Shown one piece after another: positions 17,771 to 32,011 of a stretch of 45,019 bases of DNA. Made by a program: the position numbers and the translations under genes. Numbering within the stretch: position 1 is the first letter of the stretch; every line of letters begins with the position of its first letter. Source of the DNA: a virus. Taxonomy: Duplodnaviria > Heunggongvirae > Uroviricota > Caudoviricetes. The stretch lies in IMG/VR virus record IMGVR_UViG_2687453529_000004. One strand, given 5' to 3'. The notes under the pieces are model-generated. The model was not told the origin of the DNA. It ran no database searches and saw only the letters and a list, made by a program, of their open reading frames with translations.

Positions 17771-18796
17771 TTACGCCAGTTGAACGGACACGAACTCATC
17801 AGGATCAGCCAGCAGCATCAGCGGTGCTGACTGAATCATGGTGAACTCACGCGCCGGATCGCCGGTAGTCACCCAGTTTTTCGGGTAACGGGCAGAGGCG
17901 TTAATGCCTTCGCGCTGTGCGTCCGCATCCTGAATGCAGCCATAGGTGCGCAGACCGCGAGCCTGAGTGTTCCCCAGCACCATCGTGTTGTCCGGCAGGA
18001 AGTTCTTTTTGACGCCGTTTTCCACGTACTGTCCGGAATACACGACGATGGCCACATCGCCATACATTCCCTTATAGGACACCGCTTTGCCCAGGTCTTT
18101 TACCGCTGTCTCCAGCTCGGAATGAGAGCCGCGACGGGTATCCAGCTTCTCCTTGACGGCTTTGAAGGAACGGAACAGCGCCCAGCCTTTCGGATCAAAC
18201 ACGATGATATTCACCACACCGCTGGCGTTCAGCGCGTAGGCTTCGATATCGTCGGTCGGGTCATACGTGGACTTGTCACGCTTGCTCCACTCCGTGCCGC
18301 CGGACTGCGTGATGTTATTCGCCTCACTGCGGCCCATATCCACCTCAACCGGATCGAAGGCTTCACCGGTCATGGTATATTTGCCCTTAAGCACGGCAGA
18401 AACTGCCTGCATCTCTTCGACCTGAGCAATGGCCAGCTCTTCGTCACGCATGTTCTGCATGATGATGCGACGGCGGCGGTAAGCCGGGTCCGCCAGATTC
18501 TGCGGATCTTCATCCGGCAGGCGACGCAGGGTCATCTGCGGATTCACTTCATGCTTGGGTTTGACATATCCCGGCGTAAATTCAGAGGTGGAGCCGCCAC
18601 GGGAACGGATAACCTCACCGGAAACAATCGGCGAAACGTACAGCGCCATGTTTACCAGTCCCGGAATTTGTGAGAGATAGACTTTCTCCGTAGTGAAGGG
18701 ATAGCTCTCACGGAAAAAGAGACGCAGAAACAGCGGATCAAACTTAAATTTCTGCTCATTTGCCGCCAGCAGCTGGGCGGTTGTGTACATCGACAT
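17771..18796 (-). CDS. E: Major capsid protein E
   Basis: Start at MSMYTTAQLL, 341 aa; matches recalled lambda gpE. Confidence 0.9.
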   Translation of the reverse strand: MSMYTTAQLLAANEQKFKFDPLFLRLFFRESYPFTTEKVYLSQIPGLVNMALYVSPIVSGEVIRSRGGSTSEFTPGYVKPKHEVNPQMTLRRLPDEDPQNLADPAYRRRRIIMQNMRDEELAIAQVEEMQAVSAVLKGKYTMTGEAFDPVEVDMGRSEANNITQSGGTEWSKRDKSTYDPTDDIEAYALNASGVVNIIVFDPKGWALFRSFKAVKEKLDTRRGSHSELETAVKDLGKAVSYKGMYGDVAIVVYSGQYVENGVKKNFLPDNTMVLGNTQARGLRTYGCIQDADAQREGINASARYPKNWVTTGDPAREFTMIQSAPLMLLADPDEFVSVQLA

Positions 18797-18851
18797 AAAA
18801 AAATCCCGTAAAAAAAGCCGCACAGGCGGCCTTTAGTGATGAAGGGTAAAG

Positions 18852-19184
18852 TTAAACGATGCTGATTGCCGTTCCGGCAAACGCGGTCCGTTTTTTCGTC
18901 TCGTCGCTGGCAGCCTCCGGCCAGAGCACATCCTCATAACGGAACGTGCCGGACTTGTAGAACGTCAGCGTGGTGCTGGTCTGGTCAGCAGCAACCGCAA
19001 GAATGCCAACGGCAGCACCGTCGGTGGTGCCATCCCACGCAACCAGCTTACGGCTGGAGGTGTCCAGCATCAGCGGGGTCATTGCAGGCGCTTTCGCACT
19101 CAATCCGCCGGGCGCGGTTGCGGTATGAGCCGGGTCACTGTTGCCCTGCGGCTGGTAATGGGTAAAGGTTTCTTTGCTCGTCAT
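18852..19184 (-). CDS. D: Head decoration protein D
   Basis: Start at [11 protein letters not shown], 110 aa; matches recalled lambda gpD. Confidence 0.9.
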
Positions 19185-19193
19185 AAACATCCC

Positions 19194-19799
19194 TTACACT
19201 GGTGTGTTCAGCAAATCGTTAACGGCATCAGATGCCGGGTTACCTGCAGCCAGCGGTGCCGGTGCCCCCTGCATCAGACGATCCAGCGCAGTGTCACTGC
19301 GCGCCTGTGCACTCTGTGGTGCTGCGGCCAGAATGCGGCGGGCCGTTTTCACGGTCATACCGGGGGTTTCTGCCAGCACGCGTGCCTGTTCTTCGCGTCC
19401 GTGAGCCTCCTCACAGTTGAGGATCCCCATAATGCGGCTGTTTTCTGCCGCAACCGCTGCGGTGATCTGCGCGTTCACGTCCGGCTGCGCCGCGCTGGCG
19501 TTCTCGCCCTCCGTCGCTGGCACCACGTCAGTAACGTCAGCCTGCGAAGCAGTGGCTGAAACAGTTGTTGATTGAGTCTCTTTGGTCATTCGCCCTCCTG
19601 AGAGACGGGATTTACGTGCATCCAGTGCATCACGCATGACGGTGATCGCATCGGTGCTGTTAACAAGTTCATCAGCCAGTCCGGCATCAATGGCCTCCTG
19701 ACCGCTGTACACTGCAGCCTCGGTATCCAGCACAGCCTGCACGGACAGGCCGGTATATGCCGACACCTTCTGTGCAAACATCCGGCGGGTTGCATCCAT
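19194..19799 (-). CDS. Nu3: Scaffolding protein Nu3, in-frame internal start within C
   Basis: Internal Met (MDATRRMFAQ...) gives 201 aa sharing the C stop, as recalled for lambda. Confidence 0.55.
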   Translation of the reverse strand: MDATRRMFAQKVSAYTGLSVQAVLDTEAAVYSGQEAIDAGLADELVNSTDAITVMRDALDARKSRLSGGRMTKETQSTTVSATASQADVTDVVPATEGENASAAQPDVNAQITAAVAAENSRIMGILNCEEAHGREEQARVLAETPGMTVKTARRILAAAPQSAQARSDTALDRLMQGAPAPLAAGNPASDAVNDLLNTPV

Positions 19800-25828: not shown

Positions 25829-26319
25829 ATCATAACGTCCGGTTTCTTCCGTGCCAGAACCGGACTCGCTGGCATGATGAAATATGTGTACCCGGTAACC
25901 CCGGTGTGCATCGTTTTTGATTATTCCCGCACACTCGCGCAGAAGGAGTTCCCCGTCGGGCTACGGTCTCTGTTAATACGGGAATACGGCGACGATACAG
26001 CGCATGATGTGTCAGGCTTGAATACCTTTATCCTTTAAAAGGGATATCAGTTAAGTTATCCCGTGTAGGGTATAAACCATTATCAAAGCCACTCTGTAGG
26101 AAGTGGCTTTTGTAATGGCAATAAAAAGCCCCGCGAATGCGAGGCTAAATCCTGGTATTTGTAATGACTGGTTCTTATCTCAACGCAGCCCCTTACCGCG
26201 CGCAAAATGCTCAATATCAAGCATCAGCAATGAGATGTTTAATCTGGATTCACTCCAGAAGTGAGCACCACCCTGTCTACAGAGCCAGATGTGAAGGATG
26301 ATGAGTAAAATTATCGCTA

Positions 26320-26787
26320 TCATCGAAGGCATTGCGTCCTGATGTATTCCTGAAGCGTTCTCAGTGCTGTTTGGTCGCGGATAATTCCGTCCCGGATACC
26401 GAGAACGTTTCGTCCAGCAACTGGAGAGAGTTCGACGGTGGCATCATTGCCCATGCCGGAGGCGCTGGAGGTTTCGGCTGAGGATGGCACAGGGCATTTT
26501 CCTTTGACGAGCACCCGACCACCATTATCAAGCTTGCGCCGAAGAGCATCATTTTCAGCTTTCGCATCAGCTAACTCCTTCGTGTATTTATCATCGAGTG
26601 CATCAGCATCACGCTGGCGCTGCTGCATGTCAGTAATGGTGGCGTTCGCCTTCTCCAGTTCACTGGCCTTGTTATCACGCTGTTCTTTGTAGGCGATTGC
26701 ATTATCACGGTAATGATTAACAGCCCATGACAGGCAGACGATGATGCAGATAACCAGAGCGGAGATAATCGCGGTTACCCTGCTCAT
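26320..26787 (-). CDS. rzpD: Spanin inner-membrane subunit Rz
   Basis: N-terminal TM segment, coiled-coil rich, directly after the endolysin gene. Confidence 0.8.
26361..26567 (-). CDS. rzoD: Spanin outer-membrane lipoprotein Rz1, embedded in Rz in another frame
   Basis: Lipobox LIMVVGC followed by a Pro-rich segment; embedded out-of-frame in Rz. Confidence 0.7.
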
Positions 26788-27281
26788 TGTTGCCCCCACA
26801 AACAGACCTCACGCTCAATCTCACGACGAGTCATCAGGCCTTTCCATTGCTTACCGCCAGCGTATGCCCAGCGACGTAGCTGGTCACATGCGCCCTTGAT
26901 ATCGCCCTGGTTTATTTTGCGAAGAAGAGTAGATGTTCTGAAATTGCCTGCGCCCACGTTATAGACGAACGAGTAAAGAGCGCCGCGCGTTGTTTCCGGT
27001 ATATCGACTTTGATGTACGGGTTAATTTGTCTGGCTACCGTGGCAAGGTCTTTATTCAGGAGGGCTTTGCATTCTGCTTCGGTATACGTTTTACCGGGAA
27101 TGATGTCTTTTCCTGTATGCCCGTGACATACAGTCCATACGCCAACGATATCTTTGTATGGTATGTAGCTGACACCTTCCAGACCATCGTTACCACTTGG
27201 GCCAGTGATTAACACTGATGCTATAGCAATTGCTCCGCCACCAATAGCAGCAGCAACGGCTTTTCGTAATGATGGAGGCAT
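26784..27281 (-). CDS. rrrD: Endolysin (lysozyme, RrrD-like)
   Basis: 165 aa, N-terminal SAR-like hydrophobic segment; matches recalled DLP12 RrrD. Confidence 0.85.
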
Positions 27282-27496
27282 TATTCACCTCTCGCAGCCT
27301 TGCGCTTATCTTCTTTAATCTTGAAATAAAGGTTTGTCAGGTACGTCAGCAGGCCAAATACCAAGCTACCCAGCACACCTATTGCTGCCCACTGTGAGGG
27401 CGTGACTTTATCGAGCAGCTGTAAAAACCAGTAGCCAGCACTGCCTGCGGAGGTGCCGTAGGCAATGCCCGTTGTTAACTTATCCATGGATTTCAT
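27281..27496 (-). CDS. essD: Holin (EssD-like)
   Basis: 71 aa with two TM segments and a charged C-terminus; matches recalled DLP12 EssD. Confidence 0.8.
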
Positions 27497-27683
27497 AGCC
27501 TCACCTCCGCAAATAACGGATGGTGTACACGGTTCGGAACGAAGAGGAAAGGTATAGAAGTTACATTAGCGTAAGGCTTGAACATCTATTCAAAAAGAAA
27601 AACGCCGCGATTATTCTGGCGTAGCTGAAAGCATCATACAATTATCAAATACGAAAATTACAAAATCATTAAAACGCATCACG

Positions 27684-28424
27684 TTACATCATGTCTTTTT
27701 CTAAAAAAAATCTTGATGAATATTGATGGGGAGGAACACCAAAATACCTTCTGAAAACACTTACAAAATATGACGTGTTTTCATAACTGCATATCTCAGC
27801 AACTTTTCCAACAGAATATAAATTGTAGCTTAATAACCTTTCCGCCATCACCATTCGCTCTTCAAGAATTAACTTACTAAATGATAAGCCTTCGTGCTTT
27901 AATTTTCTTTTTAACAGACTTTCACTCAGATACAGTCTTGAAGATATATCACAAAGTCTCCATGCTGCAGATATATCCGTGTGAATAATAGCCTTAACTT
28001 TACTTCCTAAACTATTAAGACATCCAAATAAAAAACTTTGCACTATTTTCTCTGAAGATAAGATAGCAAGACATGCAAGTGATATTTGATTTCTAACAAA
28101 ATCCACAGTTCTGCCATCACAATTCAAGCATGCAATCAAGTTCTTTAACAATGAAAAATCTTCACATTCCACCATCAAGTATGCCGGATAAAACCTTCTT
28201 ACAGAAAAAGGTGAGAGTGTGTTGCTTTTAAAGAAATCATTAACTGTTTTTTCTTCAACATCTACGATCATTACATGATCTATATTTGATGAAAAAAAAT
28301 CTTTTAAATTGTAATCAATGAGAACAGCACTTCCTTTTTTAAACAAAATATCTTCTTTACCAATTCGGACATCAAACGAGTTCAACACCAAAATGATAGA
28401 ACATATGTATAGCATATTATCCAC
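27684..28424 (-). CDS. AraC/XylS-family transcriptional regulator (cargo)
   Basis: 246 aa, C-terminal AraC HTH signature (...SYENTSYFVSVFRRYFGVPP); strongly AT-rich. Confidence 0.75.
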   Translation of the reverse strand: MDNMLYICSIILVLNSFDVRIGKEDILFKKGSAVLIDYNLKDFFSSNIDHVMIVDVEEKTVNDFFKSNTLSPFSVRRFYPAYLMVECEDFSLLKNLIACLNCDGRTVDFVRNQISLACLAILSSEKIVQSFLFGCLNSLGSKVKAIIHTDISAAWRLCDISSRLYLSESLLKRKLKHEGLSFSKLILEERMVMAERLLSYNLYSVGKVAEICSYENTSYFVSVFRRYFGVPPHQYSSRFFLEKDMM

Positions 28425-28766
28425 CTGATATCATTGGGGTTACACCAGGTAAGTATAGGTGGAAAATCAATATTCGCCAGTTCAACAATAAGGAAAATTT
28501 CATTGCATCACAAGTATAAAATTATGTATTTAACTCACAAAGACAAATTATTAAACCAATCTGTTATATTATATATAGCTGCGTGGAATCATAATATTAT
28601 ATATTTTGACTGGCATGTTTACTAACTTTAAGTTGCATCTCAATTGTTTCTTCAGCGTAAACAGAGTTTTTATACAAACTGACACTCTGGGTATCATAGT
28701 GTAGTTTTTACGATTGTAAATATCCTGCATGCAGGAACTCATCCTTTTGGATGATATCGCATACAA

Positions 28767-29726
28767 TTAATTTACCATCAGTCTTAGAGCCAGTTCGTCC
28801 GGATAGGGATCGAAGTAATTCTGTGTAAGCAAGTAATCATTAGGATACTCACCCAGATAATGCTTCAGCAGAGTCAACGGCGCAAGAAGAGGTAATGTGC
28901 CAGAACGATAGTTAAGTATAACCTCGCTCAACTCTTTACGCTGGCGTGTACTTAAGTAGTTACTAAAATACCCCTGTATATGCATCAGCACATTCGTGTG
29001 ATTTTTACGTGATGCAGGTTTTCTGAGAATCGCCATCAGCTTATCACGATACACCTCAAAGTATGATTCAAGGTCCGCCCACTCGTGTATTGCAGCCACA
29101 AATGGTCCCATATCTTTATAGCCTGCCTGACTATGCGCCAACAACTGAAGCTTATAACGACTATGAAAAGCTAATAACTCTCTTCTTGATAATTTCTCCT
29201 TGTAAAGGTGATTGAGCTCATGCAAAGCAAAAACTCTTTCAACAAAATTCTCACGAAGCACTGGATCATGTAATCGCCCATCCTCTTCAACCGGTAGCCA
29301 GGAAAACTTTTCCATCAAAGTGCTCGTAAATAGTCCCACTCCATCTTTACGACCTCGATTACCATTTTCATCATAGACACGCACGCGCTCCATGCCACAG
29401 CTGGGAGATTTAGCACAAACCACAAACCCCGATACATCCTTTAATTTGTCCATATAAGAACGACTAAACTCTGTCATTCTCTCTGTCACATCCTCATTCT
29501 GGTCGTGGCTGAAACACATCCGTATATTTCCTTGCGTCGAGCGCACAAGACGTAGAGCAGGACGCGGAACTGGCAGCCCTATAGCCATTTCCGGACATAC
29601 TGGTCTGAATGTTACCCATTCCACTAATTTGTCCATTAAAAAGTCAGCTCTTTTGTGACCACCATCAAAACGAACAGCAGAACCGGCCAAACAACCGCTG
29701 ATTCCAATCACAGGTTTTTTTATCAT
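28767..29726 (-). CDS. Fused DUF523-DUF1722 protein (TudS/YbgA-like) (cargo)
   Basis: 319 aa; N-terminal GISGCLAG...C...CPE cysteine pattern of DUF523, C-terminal YbgA-like region; family assignment from memory only. Confidence 0.5.
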   Translation of the reverse strand: MIKKPVIGISGCLAGSAVRFDGGHKRADFLMDKLVEWVTFRPVCPEMAIGLPVPRPALRLVRSTQGNIRMCFSHDQNEDVTERMTEFSRSYMDKLKDVSGFVVCAKSPSCGMERVRVYDENGNRGRKDGVGLFTSTLMEKFSWLPVEEDGRLHDPVLRENFVERVFALHELNHLYKEKLSRRELLAFHSRYKLQLLAHSQAGYKDMGPFVAAIHEWADLESYFEVYRDKLMAILRKPASRKNHTNVLMHIQGYFSNYLSTRQRKELSEVILNYRSGTLPLLAPLTLLKHYLGEYPNDYLLTQNYFDPYPDELALRLMVN

Positions 29727-29918
29727 ATTCTCCCCCTTGACTAATTCATTAACACATAAACTGTGTAGTGCACGGAATAAATTGCCTTTCTGGCGTCATC
29801 ACTGACAATTTTTCTGTTATGGACTATTCCTAATATAGTATGAAAGTTCTTTAAGTGATCGGTCGTAATCATCTATCTTTCATACTTACTCTCAACTATC
29901 AAAAGTACAGGATTTATT

Positions 29919-30443
29919 ATGAAGTTATGGCCTGTGTTGACTGGCATTGCACTCTCTTTCACTCTTATAGCATGTAAGGCCCCGACACCACCTAAAGGTG
30001 TGCAGCCGATTACAAATTTTGACGCCAACCGCTACCTCGGAAAATGGTATGAAATAGCTCGCCTCGAGAACCGGTTCGAACGTGGTCTGGAACAGGTCAG
30101 CGCTACTTATGGAAAACGGAACGACGGAGGGATTCGTGTACTTAACCGTGGATACGATCCAACGAAAAATAAATGGAGCGAGAGCGAAGGTAAAGCATAC
30201 TTTACTGGAGATACTAAAACTGCAGCATTGAAGGTTTCGTTTTTTGGCCCCTTCTATGGTGGCTATAATGTAATCAAACTGGATGATGAGTATAAGTATG
30301 CTCTTGTCAGTGGTCCGAACAGAGAATACCTATGGATTCTGGCAAGGACCCCAACTATTCCAGATAAAGTAAAAGCAGACTATGTGCGAACCGCTCAAAA
30401 GTTGGGATTCAATGTCAATGAATTATTATGGGTTAAACAATAA
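29919..30443 (+). CDS. blc: Outer-membrane lipoprotein lipocalin Blc homologue (cargo)
   Basis: 174 aa; lipobox LIAC; conserved lipocalin motifs NFDxxRYLGxWYEIAR and KVSFFGPFYGGYNVI. Confidence 0.8.
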   Translation: MKLWPVLTGIALSFTLIACKAPTPPKGVQPITNFDANRYLGKWYEIARLENRFERGLEQVSATYGKRNDGGIRVLNRGYDPTKNKWSESEGKAYFTGDTKTAALKVSFFGPFYGGYNVIKLDDEYKYALVSGPNREYLWILARTPTIPDKVKADYVRTAQKLGFNVNELLWVKQ

Positions 30444-30471
30444 AATCCCTACCCGAAATAATACTTATTAG

Positions 30472-30500
30472 AAAAAAACCAGCCTTTGGGGAGGCTGGCT
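30472..30500 (-). terminator. Rho-independent terminator downstream of Q (tR'-like)
   Basis: Minus-strand hairpin CCAGCCT-N6-AGGCTGG followed by a T7 run. Confidence 0.45.
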
Positions 30501-30598
30501 AAATCAGGAAACAAGCTGTTATATGATAATAACTACGTTGCGATTCCAACATTTAAAATGTTAGACTAATGACAATCAGACAGCAACTTTTCCTTTAA

Positions 30599-30991
30599 TT
30601 ATTTCGAACAATCAGCATCCATCTCCAATCGGAGATCCAACACCATCAGCATACCCTCCACTACGCCCTCAGCTTTCTGAAGCATCCTGCCAACCCAACA
30701 ATCAGATCGCCCATGCTTACGTGCAAGCGCCATAAAAGTCATGCCGCCGACATAATAGTCCACCAATAAATCATGCAAATCGCTGTTGTTCTTTTTCAGA
30801 CGGGCCATGCACCCGCAAATGATCATCGCGTCATCGTCACAACATTGTGGGCGAGATTTTACTTTTGAAGTAATTAATCCCTTAAAACCGGCGGCAATGG
30901 ACGACCAGGTCACATCTTCATGATTATTAGCCGCCCACGCTCCCCAACGCTCAAGAACCATCTGAATATCACGCATCAACTTACTCCACAA
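30599..30991 (-). CDS. quuD: Late-gene antiterminator Q (QuuD-like)
   Basis: ~125-130 aa with Cys-rich zinc-binding segment; located between rusA and the lysis region; start codon uncertain. Confidence 0.7.
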
Positions 30992-31198
30992 AAATCAGAC
31001 CAGAACGCCAATTACAAGCAAAAATCAACGAAACAGTATTAGTTGATTGTTATCTCTGACTTCATACTCCTGCTCCTGTCAGGGTTTTGGCGTAATTCTT
31101 CAGTATTCGGTAATCGGTCAAAACAGAACCGGGGAAACGATATAAGCGCAGACGCCCCCAGCGGTGGCGAAGACGTTCTGCCATATAAAACTCAAACA

Positions 31199-31561
31199 TC
31201 ATTCATTCCCCATTTCGGTGATGGTCAGTTCCAGCCTCCCACCTTTGGTAACAGGCATCTTCACAACGCGGTAATCAACGACCTGAGCATCATCCAGCCA
31301 GAAACCTGCTTTAGTGAGTGCGTCAAAAGCGGCTTTTTGCAGATTATCCAGGTCACGGCGACGGCGATCCGGCATGTGGCACTCAATGCGGATTTTCACA
31401 GGCATAGCCAGGCCGATATCCAGCATTGCGTTTTTAATGATTCGGGCGACGTTATCGCGGTATGCCTGCCCCTCTGCGCTGACGTGCGTGCGCCCGCGAT
31501 TATGGCGGTAATAGCGATTATTGCTCGGAGGCCAGGGTAATGTGATGCTGTAGGTATTCAC
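31199..31561 (-). CDS. rusA: Holliday junction resolvase RusA
   Basis: 120 aa, matches recalled RusA. Confidence 0.85.
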
Positions 31562-31848
31562 GCCTTAATAACCCCCTCTTTCAGCCAGATAACCTGTGTT
31601 CTCGCCATACCTTCCAGCGCGCATTCTTTTGCATATGCAGCATCGACAAAATGTGTGCGGCGGTCGATTTCGTCGTGGCAGGCAGAACATGCAATGGTGG
31701 CAATCAGGTCTGGCGGTTTGGTACCGGTGCCGCACAATCCAGTCAGCCGGATATGTGCCAGTACAGACGTTTCAGGGTTGCCATTACATACGCCAGGGAT
31801 TCTTACCTGGCATTCCCGACTACGCGCTGCTTTTCTCAAATCAGCCAT
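31558..31848 (-). CDS. ybcO: YbcO-like protein (DUF1364, putative nuclease)
   Basis: 96 aa from [13 protein letters not shown], Cys-rich; DLP12 ybcO-like. Confidence 0.6.
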
Positions 31849-32011
31849 GATTCCTCCTTGCTGCCAGTCGCAACCATTTTTTATCAACCAGGCTGGCGGT
31901 ATATCCGAGCAGTGTTGGTATTTCGGAAGGCTTCAGCTCCGGTTTACGCTTACGACGATCTGGTACTCTGTAGATGTGTCCGTTCATGACACGAATAAGC
32001 GGTGTAGCCAT
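31841..32011 (-). CDS. ninE: NinE protein
   Basis: Hand-translated 56 aa [35 protein letters not shown]... (below the ORF-track cutoff); overlaps ybcN stop and ybcO start. Confidence 0.7.
   Translation of the reverse strand: MATPLIRVMNGHIYRVPDRRKRKPELKPSEIPTLLGYTASLVDKKWLRLAARRNHG

Follow-up and report, generated by a model that had tools for sequence, protein, structure and literature searches.

A three-gene cassette between Q and the lysis genes

The stretch of viral DNA analysed here (45,019 nucleotides; IMG/VR record IMGVR_UViG_2687453529_000004, Caudoviricetes; hereafter the window) looks like a complete prophage of the lambda type, which runs from intD to appY at the tRNA-Arg gene argU (locus NZ_CP033850.1 2906500-2956000) and is the intact counterpart of DLP12, the cryptic prophage of Escherichia coli K-12. 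Between its late antiterminator gene Q and its lysis genes, at positions 27497-30598, lies a cassette of three genes: blc2 (29919-30443, + strand), which encodes an outer-membrane lipoprotein lipocalin and is also called blc below; rudS (28767-29726, - strand), whose 319 codons specify a TudS(DUF523)-DUF1722 fusion protein; and araC (27684-28415, - strand), a gene of 243 codons for an AraC-family regulator, with an open reading frame (ORF) that can be extended to a GTG at 28424. A first-pass annotation made from the sequence alone had proposed a lipocalin, a DUF523-DUF1722 protein and an AraC regulator at these places and on these strands, and profile searches confirm all three by large margins. 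The parts of the cassette are of known kinds, RudS has been assayed, and the cassette itself is common, i.e., present in about 1 in 5 complete E. coli genomes. What is new here is the chromosomal origin of the blc-rudS block and the recognition of araC as a separate module, recurrently frameshifted at a run of eight T (T8).

On one side, the insert is bordered by Q (30599-30976, - strand), which is of the Q21/QuuD type (PF06530, E 1e-50; 88% amino acid identity to K-12 QuuD) and matches the Q21 structures 6p18/6jnx at E 2e-7; the RefSeq call is 378 nt long, and an alternative TTG start lies at 30991. Upstream of Q are found emrE, ybcK, ybcN, ninE, ybcO, rusA, and ylcG, and the window also has a Lom-family gene. 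On the other side, a non-coding stretch of 187 bp separates araC from the first gene of the lysis cassette, that of an S21-type (P21-type) holin (S, 27281-27496, - strand; PF04971, E 2e-35; 99% amino acid identity to K-12 EssD), which is followed by the endolysin (lysozyme; 26784-27281, PF00959) and Rz (26320-26799, PF03245) genes. Three non-coding regions punctuate the insert, i.e., the Q-distal segment of 155 bp (30444-30598, - strand), which is the presumed site of pR' and holds a tR'-like hairpin and T run; the divergent region of 192 bp between blc and rudS (29727-29918), where both genes presumably have their own promoters; and an AT-rich spacer of 351 bp upstream of araC (28416-28766, - strand). 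The AT-richness noticed in the first-pass annotation is clear, with a GC content of 38.1% in the insert and 49.7% in the window, and it is uneven: araC and its upstream spacer are at 31-32%, rudS and blc at 43-44%.

Identity to DLP12 at the DNA level (93-96%) ends at 27507, 11 bp upstream of the holin start, and resumes at 30617, within Q, at 18 nt from its 3' end. The interval not shared with K-12 DLP12 is then 27508-30616, i.e., essentially the insert plus the last 18 nt of Q. K-12 DLP12, whose slot is likewise flanked by ybcN-ninE-ybcO-rusA-ylcG-Q and by essD-rrrD-Rz, carries there the porin gene nmpC, disrupted by the insertion sequence (IS) IS5. Since nmpC lies between these flanks in DLP12, the insert occupies an exchangeable Q-S cargo slot, and the likening of this slot to those of nmpC and stx was well founded. 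As expected of a Q-S moron, it is placed between Q and the holin gene and gives way to other cargo (nmpC) in sister phages. Both nmpC and blc are outer-membrane protein genes placed on the strand opposite to late transcription, while stx is transcribed by Q-modified RNA polymerase on induction. However, the nmpC and stx slots hold one porin gene or one toxin operon, whereas three genes of mixed origin are found here; moreover, in comparison with the nmpC slot, the swapped segment takes in the end of Q and the entire Q-distal non-coding region. In contrast to the Sp4 and Stx slots, no tRNA gene was found near the cassette (26000-32000), and a search of the same interval for RNA elements (Rfam, E <= 1) gave sub-threshold matches only.

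The combination had been held not to be a standard lambdoid arrangement, which proved wrong. Counted at >= 80% coverage of the Q-to-S block, the arrangement Q-blc-rudS-araC-S is present in 979 of 5426 complete E. coli genomes; araC is found in 995 of them and blc-rudS in 1044 (~19%), all these counts being inflated by over-sampled clones. It is also present in 12 deposited phage genomes (IdasGreatGrand at 99%, the 1H12 / Lambda_ev series at 89%), and 61 of 80 IMG/VR loci retrieved with the RudS protein have the full order. The 1H12 / Lambda_ev phages are plaque-forming temperate isolates from infant gut E. coli, and Mathieu et al. (2020, PMC6969025) had reported that over half of 19 gut lambdas have blc as a moron. 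We also found the cassette in a Qin-like prophage (ydfU, rem, hokD / essQ, rrrQ) of E. coli D2 (NZ_CP010137.1 2489313-2499989), so it moves among lambdoid backbones while keeping the same slot; in this copy, Q and araC are frameshifted and an IS3 lies between araC and the holin gene. Records of the exact window RudS protein come from 1000 contigs or more, and its 90%-identity cluster also has close relatives from E. fergusonii. In several genomes, IS1, IS2 or IS3 is found within or beside the cassette, and in some the rudS gene is split into DUF523 and YbgA annotations. Q, blc, rudS, araC and the holin gene are found at 94-100% protein identity on two short contigs (JARKOR010000151.1 and JARKOR010000135.1) binned in the genome 'Candidatus Nanosynbacter sp.' MAG D148_maxbin.008, which is almost certainly binning contamination. 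All three proteins fall in PHROG families annotated "unknown function" (phrog_1450 for araC), and we found no description of the trio as a unit in the literature.

The blc-rudS pair and its chromosomal relatives

The function of the middle gene, considered unknown in the first-pass annotation, can be approached through a published enzyme. The fusion itself is upheld by Pfam profiles: 2-thiour_desulf/DUF523 (PF04463) matches residues 7-149 (137.9 bits, E 3e-40) and DUF1722 (PF08349) residues 192-309 (138.2 bits, E 2e-40), and the TudS structure 6z92 matches the N-terminus. DUF523-DUF1722 fusions have been named RudS and are [4Fe-4S] tRNA 4-thiouridine (s4U) desulfidases; E. coli cells that overexpress them have less s4U and a shorter delay of growth induced by ultraviolet A (UVA) (Jamontas et al., NAR 2024, PMC11417400). 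One of the enzymes tested in that work, RudS_vir, comes from phage 1H12 (PMC11417400), where its gene is part of the same Q-blc-rudS-araC-S cassette. The window RudS is 93% identical to RudS_vir (Escherichia phage 1H12 H3V29_gp66) over 319 residues without gaps, and it retains the cluster ligands C12, C44, and C110 as well as the catalytic E46, R55, S107, and S109, the reference residues in RudS_KT being C17/C49/C114, E51, S111, S113, and R60 (PMC11417400). RudS_vir and the window protein have in common the cassette, the cluster ligands and the Glu, Ser, Ser, Arg catalytic set, but they represent different alleles (dS 0.29), and the window copy is carried by a DLP12-type prophage at argU, whereas RudS_vir belongs to a Jouyvirus isolate. 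By this homology, the window RudS is probably a tRNA s4U desulfidase, an activity shown for RudS_vir. The RudS paper does not discuss the phage context and describes E. coli as having neither RudS nor TudS homologues (PMC11417400). For RudS, this is true of laboratory strains only, prophage rudS being present in 1044 of the 5426 complete genomes.

The lipocalin is equally well defined. It matches Pfam Lipocalin_2 (PF08212) at E 7e-44 and NCBIfam Blc (NF007786) at 316.1 bits, for a cutoff of 267, as well as several Blc structures (3mbt at E 3.5e-69, and also 1qwd and 2aco). Its N-terminus, MKLWPVLTGIALSFTLIAC-K, was read by eye and contains a lipobox, LIAC, at residues 16-19, with a Lys at +2 after the lipidated Cys, i.e., a lipoprotein signal with its lipobox Cys and, by eye, without an inner-membrane retention signal. 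E. coli Blc (b4149) is an RpoS-dependent outer-membrane lipocalin. It shares the Lipocalin_2 fold and the lipobox with blc2, but the two are paralogues, with 60% amino acid identity, and K-12 blc is located next to ampC, whereas blc2 is linked to rudS. Indeed, blc2 is closer to Enterobacter blc2 copies (~80%) than to K-12 Blc. Its homology to the Blc structures suggests that it may bind lysophospholipids or fatty acids at the outer membrane.

To what extent this pair exists outside phages was seen in a scan of one genome per species, which gave 62 non-E. coli species loci. RudS homologues with 66-77% identity are present in Citrobacter, Kluyvera, Enterobacter, Leclercia, Lelliottia, Klebsiella oxytoca, Pectobacterium, and others. 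A blc paralogue, with 69-82% amino acid identity to the phage Blc, is located divergently upstream of rudS in 40 of the 62 loci, and in 36 loci an MlrA-like MerR gene and a transthyretin-like gene directly precede rudS on the same strand. This chromosomal block, i.e., blc2/MerR/transthyretin-like/rudS (Enterobacter, Leclercia, Lelliottia, and some Citrobacter), presents the same divergent blc2 and rudS as the phage; on the contrary, the phage copy has neither the MerR nor the transthyretin-like gene, no homologue of either being found in the window, and has araC downstream instead. Two Citrobacter genomes, including that of C. sedlakii, resemble the phage in that no gene separates blc from rudS, and the C. 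sedlakii locus has in common with it the divergent layout with an intergenic region of 188-192 bp. As for araC, Q and the holin gene, they are present in none of the 62 chromosomal loci. Because the chromosomal loci are devoid of these three genes and the window is devoid of the MerR and transthyretin-like genes, the phage blc-rudS pair is a shortened version of a block conserved in the chromosomes of Enterobacter-/Citrobacter-type genomes, where the MerR gene was left behind. None of the sampled genomes is close enough to be the donor, the best RudS being 77% identical (Citrobacter) and those of the adjacent-pair genomes 66-74%. It had also been envisaged that the trio could turn out to be a common chromosomal block: this holds for the blc-rudS pair, which is common in other Enterobacteriaceae, and fails for the full trio. 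A related case is ORF319 (RudS_ST) of Salmonella pathogenicity island 2 (SPI-2), which is under a MerR-family regulator, and chromosomal rudS relatives are associated with light-responsive operons (PMC11417400).

The non-coding regions of the phage copy can be compared with those of the 1H12 allele. The blc-rudS intergenic region is 90% identical, without indels, and the Q-distal segment 91% identical; at most one gap was seen in these regions. Upstream of blc is a perfect 10-nt inverted repeat (29837-29846 / 29877-29886; AGTATGAAAG / CTTTCATACT), whose arms are 30 nt apart. It was rejected as an operator or RNA stem, both arms being altered in the 1H12 allele at non-matching, non-compensating positions.

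The araC module and its T8 run

The araC product has a C-terminal double helix-turn-helix domain (HTH_18, E 3.5e-13; HTH_AraC, E 2.6e-10) and matches the structure of the GadX DNA-binding domain (3mkl) at E 2e-19. It is 53% identical to Sakai ECs_0287 over its full length, including an N-terminal domain that starts with MxxxCS(V/I)I, and the first recognition helix, SESLLKRKLK-EG-SFSK, is almost the same in the two proteins. Identity is 47% over 159 amino acids with PsrA (ECs_1087) and 31-33%, in full-length alignments, with GadW, AppY, and YdeO. The protein is not YdeO itself, since it reaches 123 bits with the NCBIfam YdeO model for an equivalog cutoff of 348, and is only a relative. These alignments place it in an E. 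coli prophage clade with PsrA and, presumably, PatE, related to GadW, AppY, and YdeO. Its family is small, with 26 clusters, all of E. coli type, at E <= 1e-20 among 5.8 billion proteins. With the PsrA/PsrB/PatE group, it shares the AraC subfamily, the prophage-borne state and the AT-richness; however, it forms a distinct orthologous group without a closer named relative, is found mostly in strains other than enterohaemorrhagic E. coli (EHEC), has no tRNA genes or effector loci nearby, and has the slip-prone T8 run.

PsrA, PsrB, and PatE are AraC-like regulators of EHEC O157:H7 prophages, which activate gadE/hdeA and repress the enterocyte effacement locus (LEE) (PMC10877973), and a review places PatE on O island 8 (OI-8) (PMC10877973). 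More generally, gadE and the AR2 acid-resistance system are the common target of AppY, YdeO, GadW, GadX, PatE, and PsrA/B (PMC10057817, PMC10877973). Because every characterised member of the clade acts there, the araC product may well act in trans on gadE and other acid-resistance promoters. The position of the gene also has a precedent, since in Sakai Sp4 psrA has the antiterminator gene on one side and the tRNA and lysis genes on the other. This psrA is annotated with 195 amino acids, but its ORF (18677-19390 of the Sakai locus) is open for 237 and has MVVVCSVIMV, typical of the clade, at its N-terminus; the deposited start is probably too far downstream. The other closest relatives of araC (52-53%), in phages mEp332 and ev099 and in O157 Sp1, occupy the second classic moron location, with the tail-fibre genes on one side and the integrase/attachment end on the other, and have IS remnants beside them. 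At the far end of the window prophage, appY provides another AraC regulator of this clade, and in DLP12 appY occupies this same tail-fibre/integrase-end moron site.

Between the window and 1H12 alleles, identity is 95% for blc, 92% for rudS and 87% for araC, and the ratio of non-synonymous to synonymous substitution rates (dN/dS) is 0.06, 0.11 and 0.26, respectively, with 0.12 for Q and 0.07 for S in the flanks. All three genes are under purifying selection. The spacer upstream of araC is only 65% identical between the two alleles and shows many indels. The GC content of araC, its divergence and the conservation of its spacer differ from those of blc-rudS, and its family occurs only in E. coli-type prophage sequences; the gene is therefore a distinct AT-rich module, less stable than blc-rudS.

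This lower stability is concentrated at one site. In about 15 of the 80 IMG/VR loci, araC is damaged while blc and rudS are intact, and most of the lesions are changes in the length of a T8 run at 28292-28299 (- strand), in codons 39-42. The tract has eight T in 47 IMG/VR loci, seven in 7, six in 2 and nine in 1, and at least 6 independent changes of length can be counted on a tree of 51 copies (42 haplotypes). Among 582 complete genomes with the window-type allele, exact matching retrieved the T8 form (88-mer) in 239 and the T7 form (87-mer) in 232 (~40%), the T7 count being certainly inflated by clonal over-sampling. With T7, the reading frame closes after 44 codons; were translation to restart at Met50, a protein of ~194 residues could result. 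Truncated araC annotations, of 195 amino acids, form a cluster of 623 sequences, compared with 1131 for the full-length cluster. In the 1H12 allele, the T8 run is interrupted. As a stable internal control, araC has another T8 run at its 3' end (27703-27710, - strand), which is T8 in all of 49 IMG/VR loci; of 584 complete genomes, only 6 have T7 there. We could reject the idea that T7 arises from sequencing errors, given the rarity of T7 in the control run and the fact that RefSeq flags the T7 copies as frameshifted. Since the control run is nearly invariant, simple mutability is not the cause either. The pattern points either to a repeatedly favoured loss of the regulator or to an on/off switch. 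No identical haplotype with two tract lengths was found among the 51 copies and 42 haplotypes, so recurrent loss fits at least as well as switching.

We read the whole, with a probability of about 0.6, as a composite lysogenic-conversion (moron) cassette in the Q-S slot, made of two modules of different origin. The first one, the divergent blc2-rudS pair, would have been captured from an enterobacterial chromosomal block; the second one is the AT-rich AraC-type regulator, which would act in trans on gadE and acid-resistance promoters as its relatives do. One could also imagine a single regulon, in which AraC has replaced the lost MerR and locally controls the divergent blc and rudS promoters. 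The phage copy does lack the MlrA-like MerR gene, which in 36 chromosomal loci stands before rudS; araC invariably comes next after rudS, and the region between blc and rudS shows 90% conservation and no indels. We nevertheless consider this unlikely: araC is frameshifted in ~40% of the window-type complete genomes and damaged in ~15/80 IMG/VR loci while blc and rudS stay intact, its GC content and divergence are unlike those of its neighbours, the two Citrobacter genomes with adjacent blc and rudS have neither MerR nor AraC, the relatives that have been characterised control host genes in trans (PMC10057817, PMC10877973), and the inverted repeat upstream of blc is not kept in the 1H12 allele. 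The two modules are not interdependent, given that araC is often frameshifted, whereas blc and rudS stay whole and evolve under purifying selection.

The same data bear on the idea that the cassette is decaying junk, hitch-hiking in a recombination-prone slot. The frequent frameshifts of araC and the IS1, IS2, and IS3 insertions in or beside the cassette in some genomes go in this direction. On the other hand, blc is full length in 79 and rudS in 80 of the 80 IMG/VR loci, their dN/dS values are as low as those of Q and S, and the cassette is present in plaque-forming phages (PMC6969025), which makes such a decay extremely improbable.

Expression and possible roles of the cassette

In the composite cassette that we favour, expression would follow lambdoid rules. 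On induction, Q-modified RNA polymerase would start just downstream of Q and read through tR', and the late transcript would cover blc in antisense, then rudS, araC, and the lysis genes. As rudS and araC, with Q/tR' before them and S after them, have the orientation of the late operon, they would be transcribed late, and RudS and the regulator would be made on induction. RudS, with its [4Fe-4S] cluster, would then convert s4U8 in host tRNA to U, as deduced from RudS_vir. Being antisense to the late transcript, blc would need its own promoter and would be expressed only from it, in the lysogen.

The signals found in the DNA are in part informative. A terminator-like hairpin had been reported between Q and the insert, and it is indeed there: a 9-bp stem followed by a T run (30500-30477, - strand, i.e., the late strand), between Q and the 3' end of blc, which is the sole such site in 27200-31100 and is also kept in two other alleles. 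The same scan showed no further terminator-like site behind rudS or araC. A match of this hairpin to a betaproteobacterial small RNA was discarded (28.6 bits for a model cutoff of 50). Promoter-like matches to the consensus are as numerous as in shuffled sequence (12 for 11.8 expected); the best sigma-70-like match, TTTACA-16-TATGAT (10/12 positions), is at 28720-28693, in the spacer upstream of araC, and for pR' the consensus scan gave weak matches only, no more than in shuffled sequence. The Q-distal segment and its DLP12 counterpart have short motifs in common (GTTGRRA ... ATATAACAG) without significant homology, and, in the phage collection, the Q-distal 197 bp are found only in the 12 trio-carrying phages.

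The orientation of rudS with the late operon, with only tR' in between, could also mean that it is an auxiliary gene of the lytic cycle. UV is a classic inducer of prophages, which speaks for such a role. Moreover, RudS overexpression reduces the UVA growth delay (PMC11417400). However, loss of s4U in delta-thiI cells mildly but significantly reduces lambda replication (PMC3296357), so that erasing s4U is not obviously helpful to a lambdoid phage. In addition, the product of a late gene would come too late to pre-empt the cross-links formed at irradiation, and the same pair exists in non-phage chromosomes with its own regulator. A lytic function thus appears improbable. Because delta-thiI cells support lambda slightly less well, lysogenic conversion is the favoured role for blc-rudS, which would then be a block for stress conditions, and in that case late-operon expression of the pair would be an unavoidable by-product of the slot.

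Outer-membrane lipoproteins of lambdoid phages, such as Cor and Llp, can exclude other phages. A protection against superinfection, in which lowered tRNA thiolation and/or the outer-membrane lipoprotein would block other phages, could be drawn from this and from the poorer growth of lambda on delta-thiI hosts (PMC3296357), and the first-pass annotation also had phage exclusion in view. We hold it to be very unlikely, since the delta-thiI effect is mild, Blc is close to a housekeeping lysophospholipid-binding lipocalin and unrelated to Cor or Llp, and none of the three proteins has a match among anti-phage defence families (PADLOC, E <= 0.01). Another view, in our opinion quite improbable, is that the cassette works as a switch on host tRNA modification, in which the prophage RudS, carried by about one E. 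coli strain in five, lowers s4U8 measurably, be it in lysogens or on induction, and araC is toggled by slippage at T8. If so, UVA and stringent signalling would be retuned together with the permissiveness for other lambdoid phages, and T8 toggling would create lysogen sub-populations with different acid-resistance or virulence programmes.

Several points weigh against the composite lysogenic-conversion cassette as we describe it. The terminator is close to any plausible pR' start, and the position of pR' itself is presumed. RudS_vir is less active on tRNA than the other RudS homologues tested (PMC11417400), and, among them, it let a uracil auxotroph grow fastest on 4-thiouracil (PMC11417400); from these two properties, tRNA may not be the only substrate. 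Concerning araC, the gadE/AR2 target is extrapolated from relatives with 31-53% identity and stays tentative, and equating ECs_0287 with PatE supposes that Sp1 is OI-8, ECs_0287 being the only AraC gene of Sp1.

For E. coli biology, these results first correct the working assumption that the species has no RudS, since ~19% of its complete genomes have a prophage rudS; hence, strain-dependent differences in tRNA s4U levels and in UVA responses may have a prophage cause. Second, araC is a very common and so far uncharacterised addition to the PsrA/PatE/AppY group of prophage regulators. Its repeated knockout at a single homopolymer run suggests that this regulator has a fitness cost or takes part in an on/off strategy.

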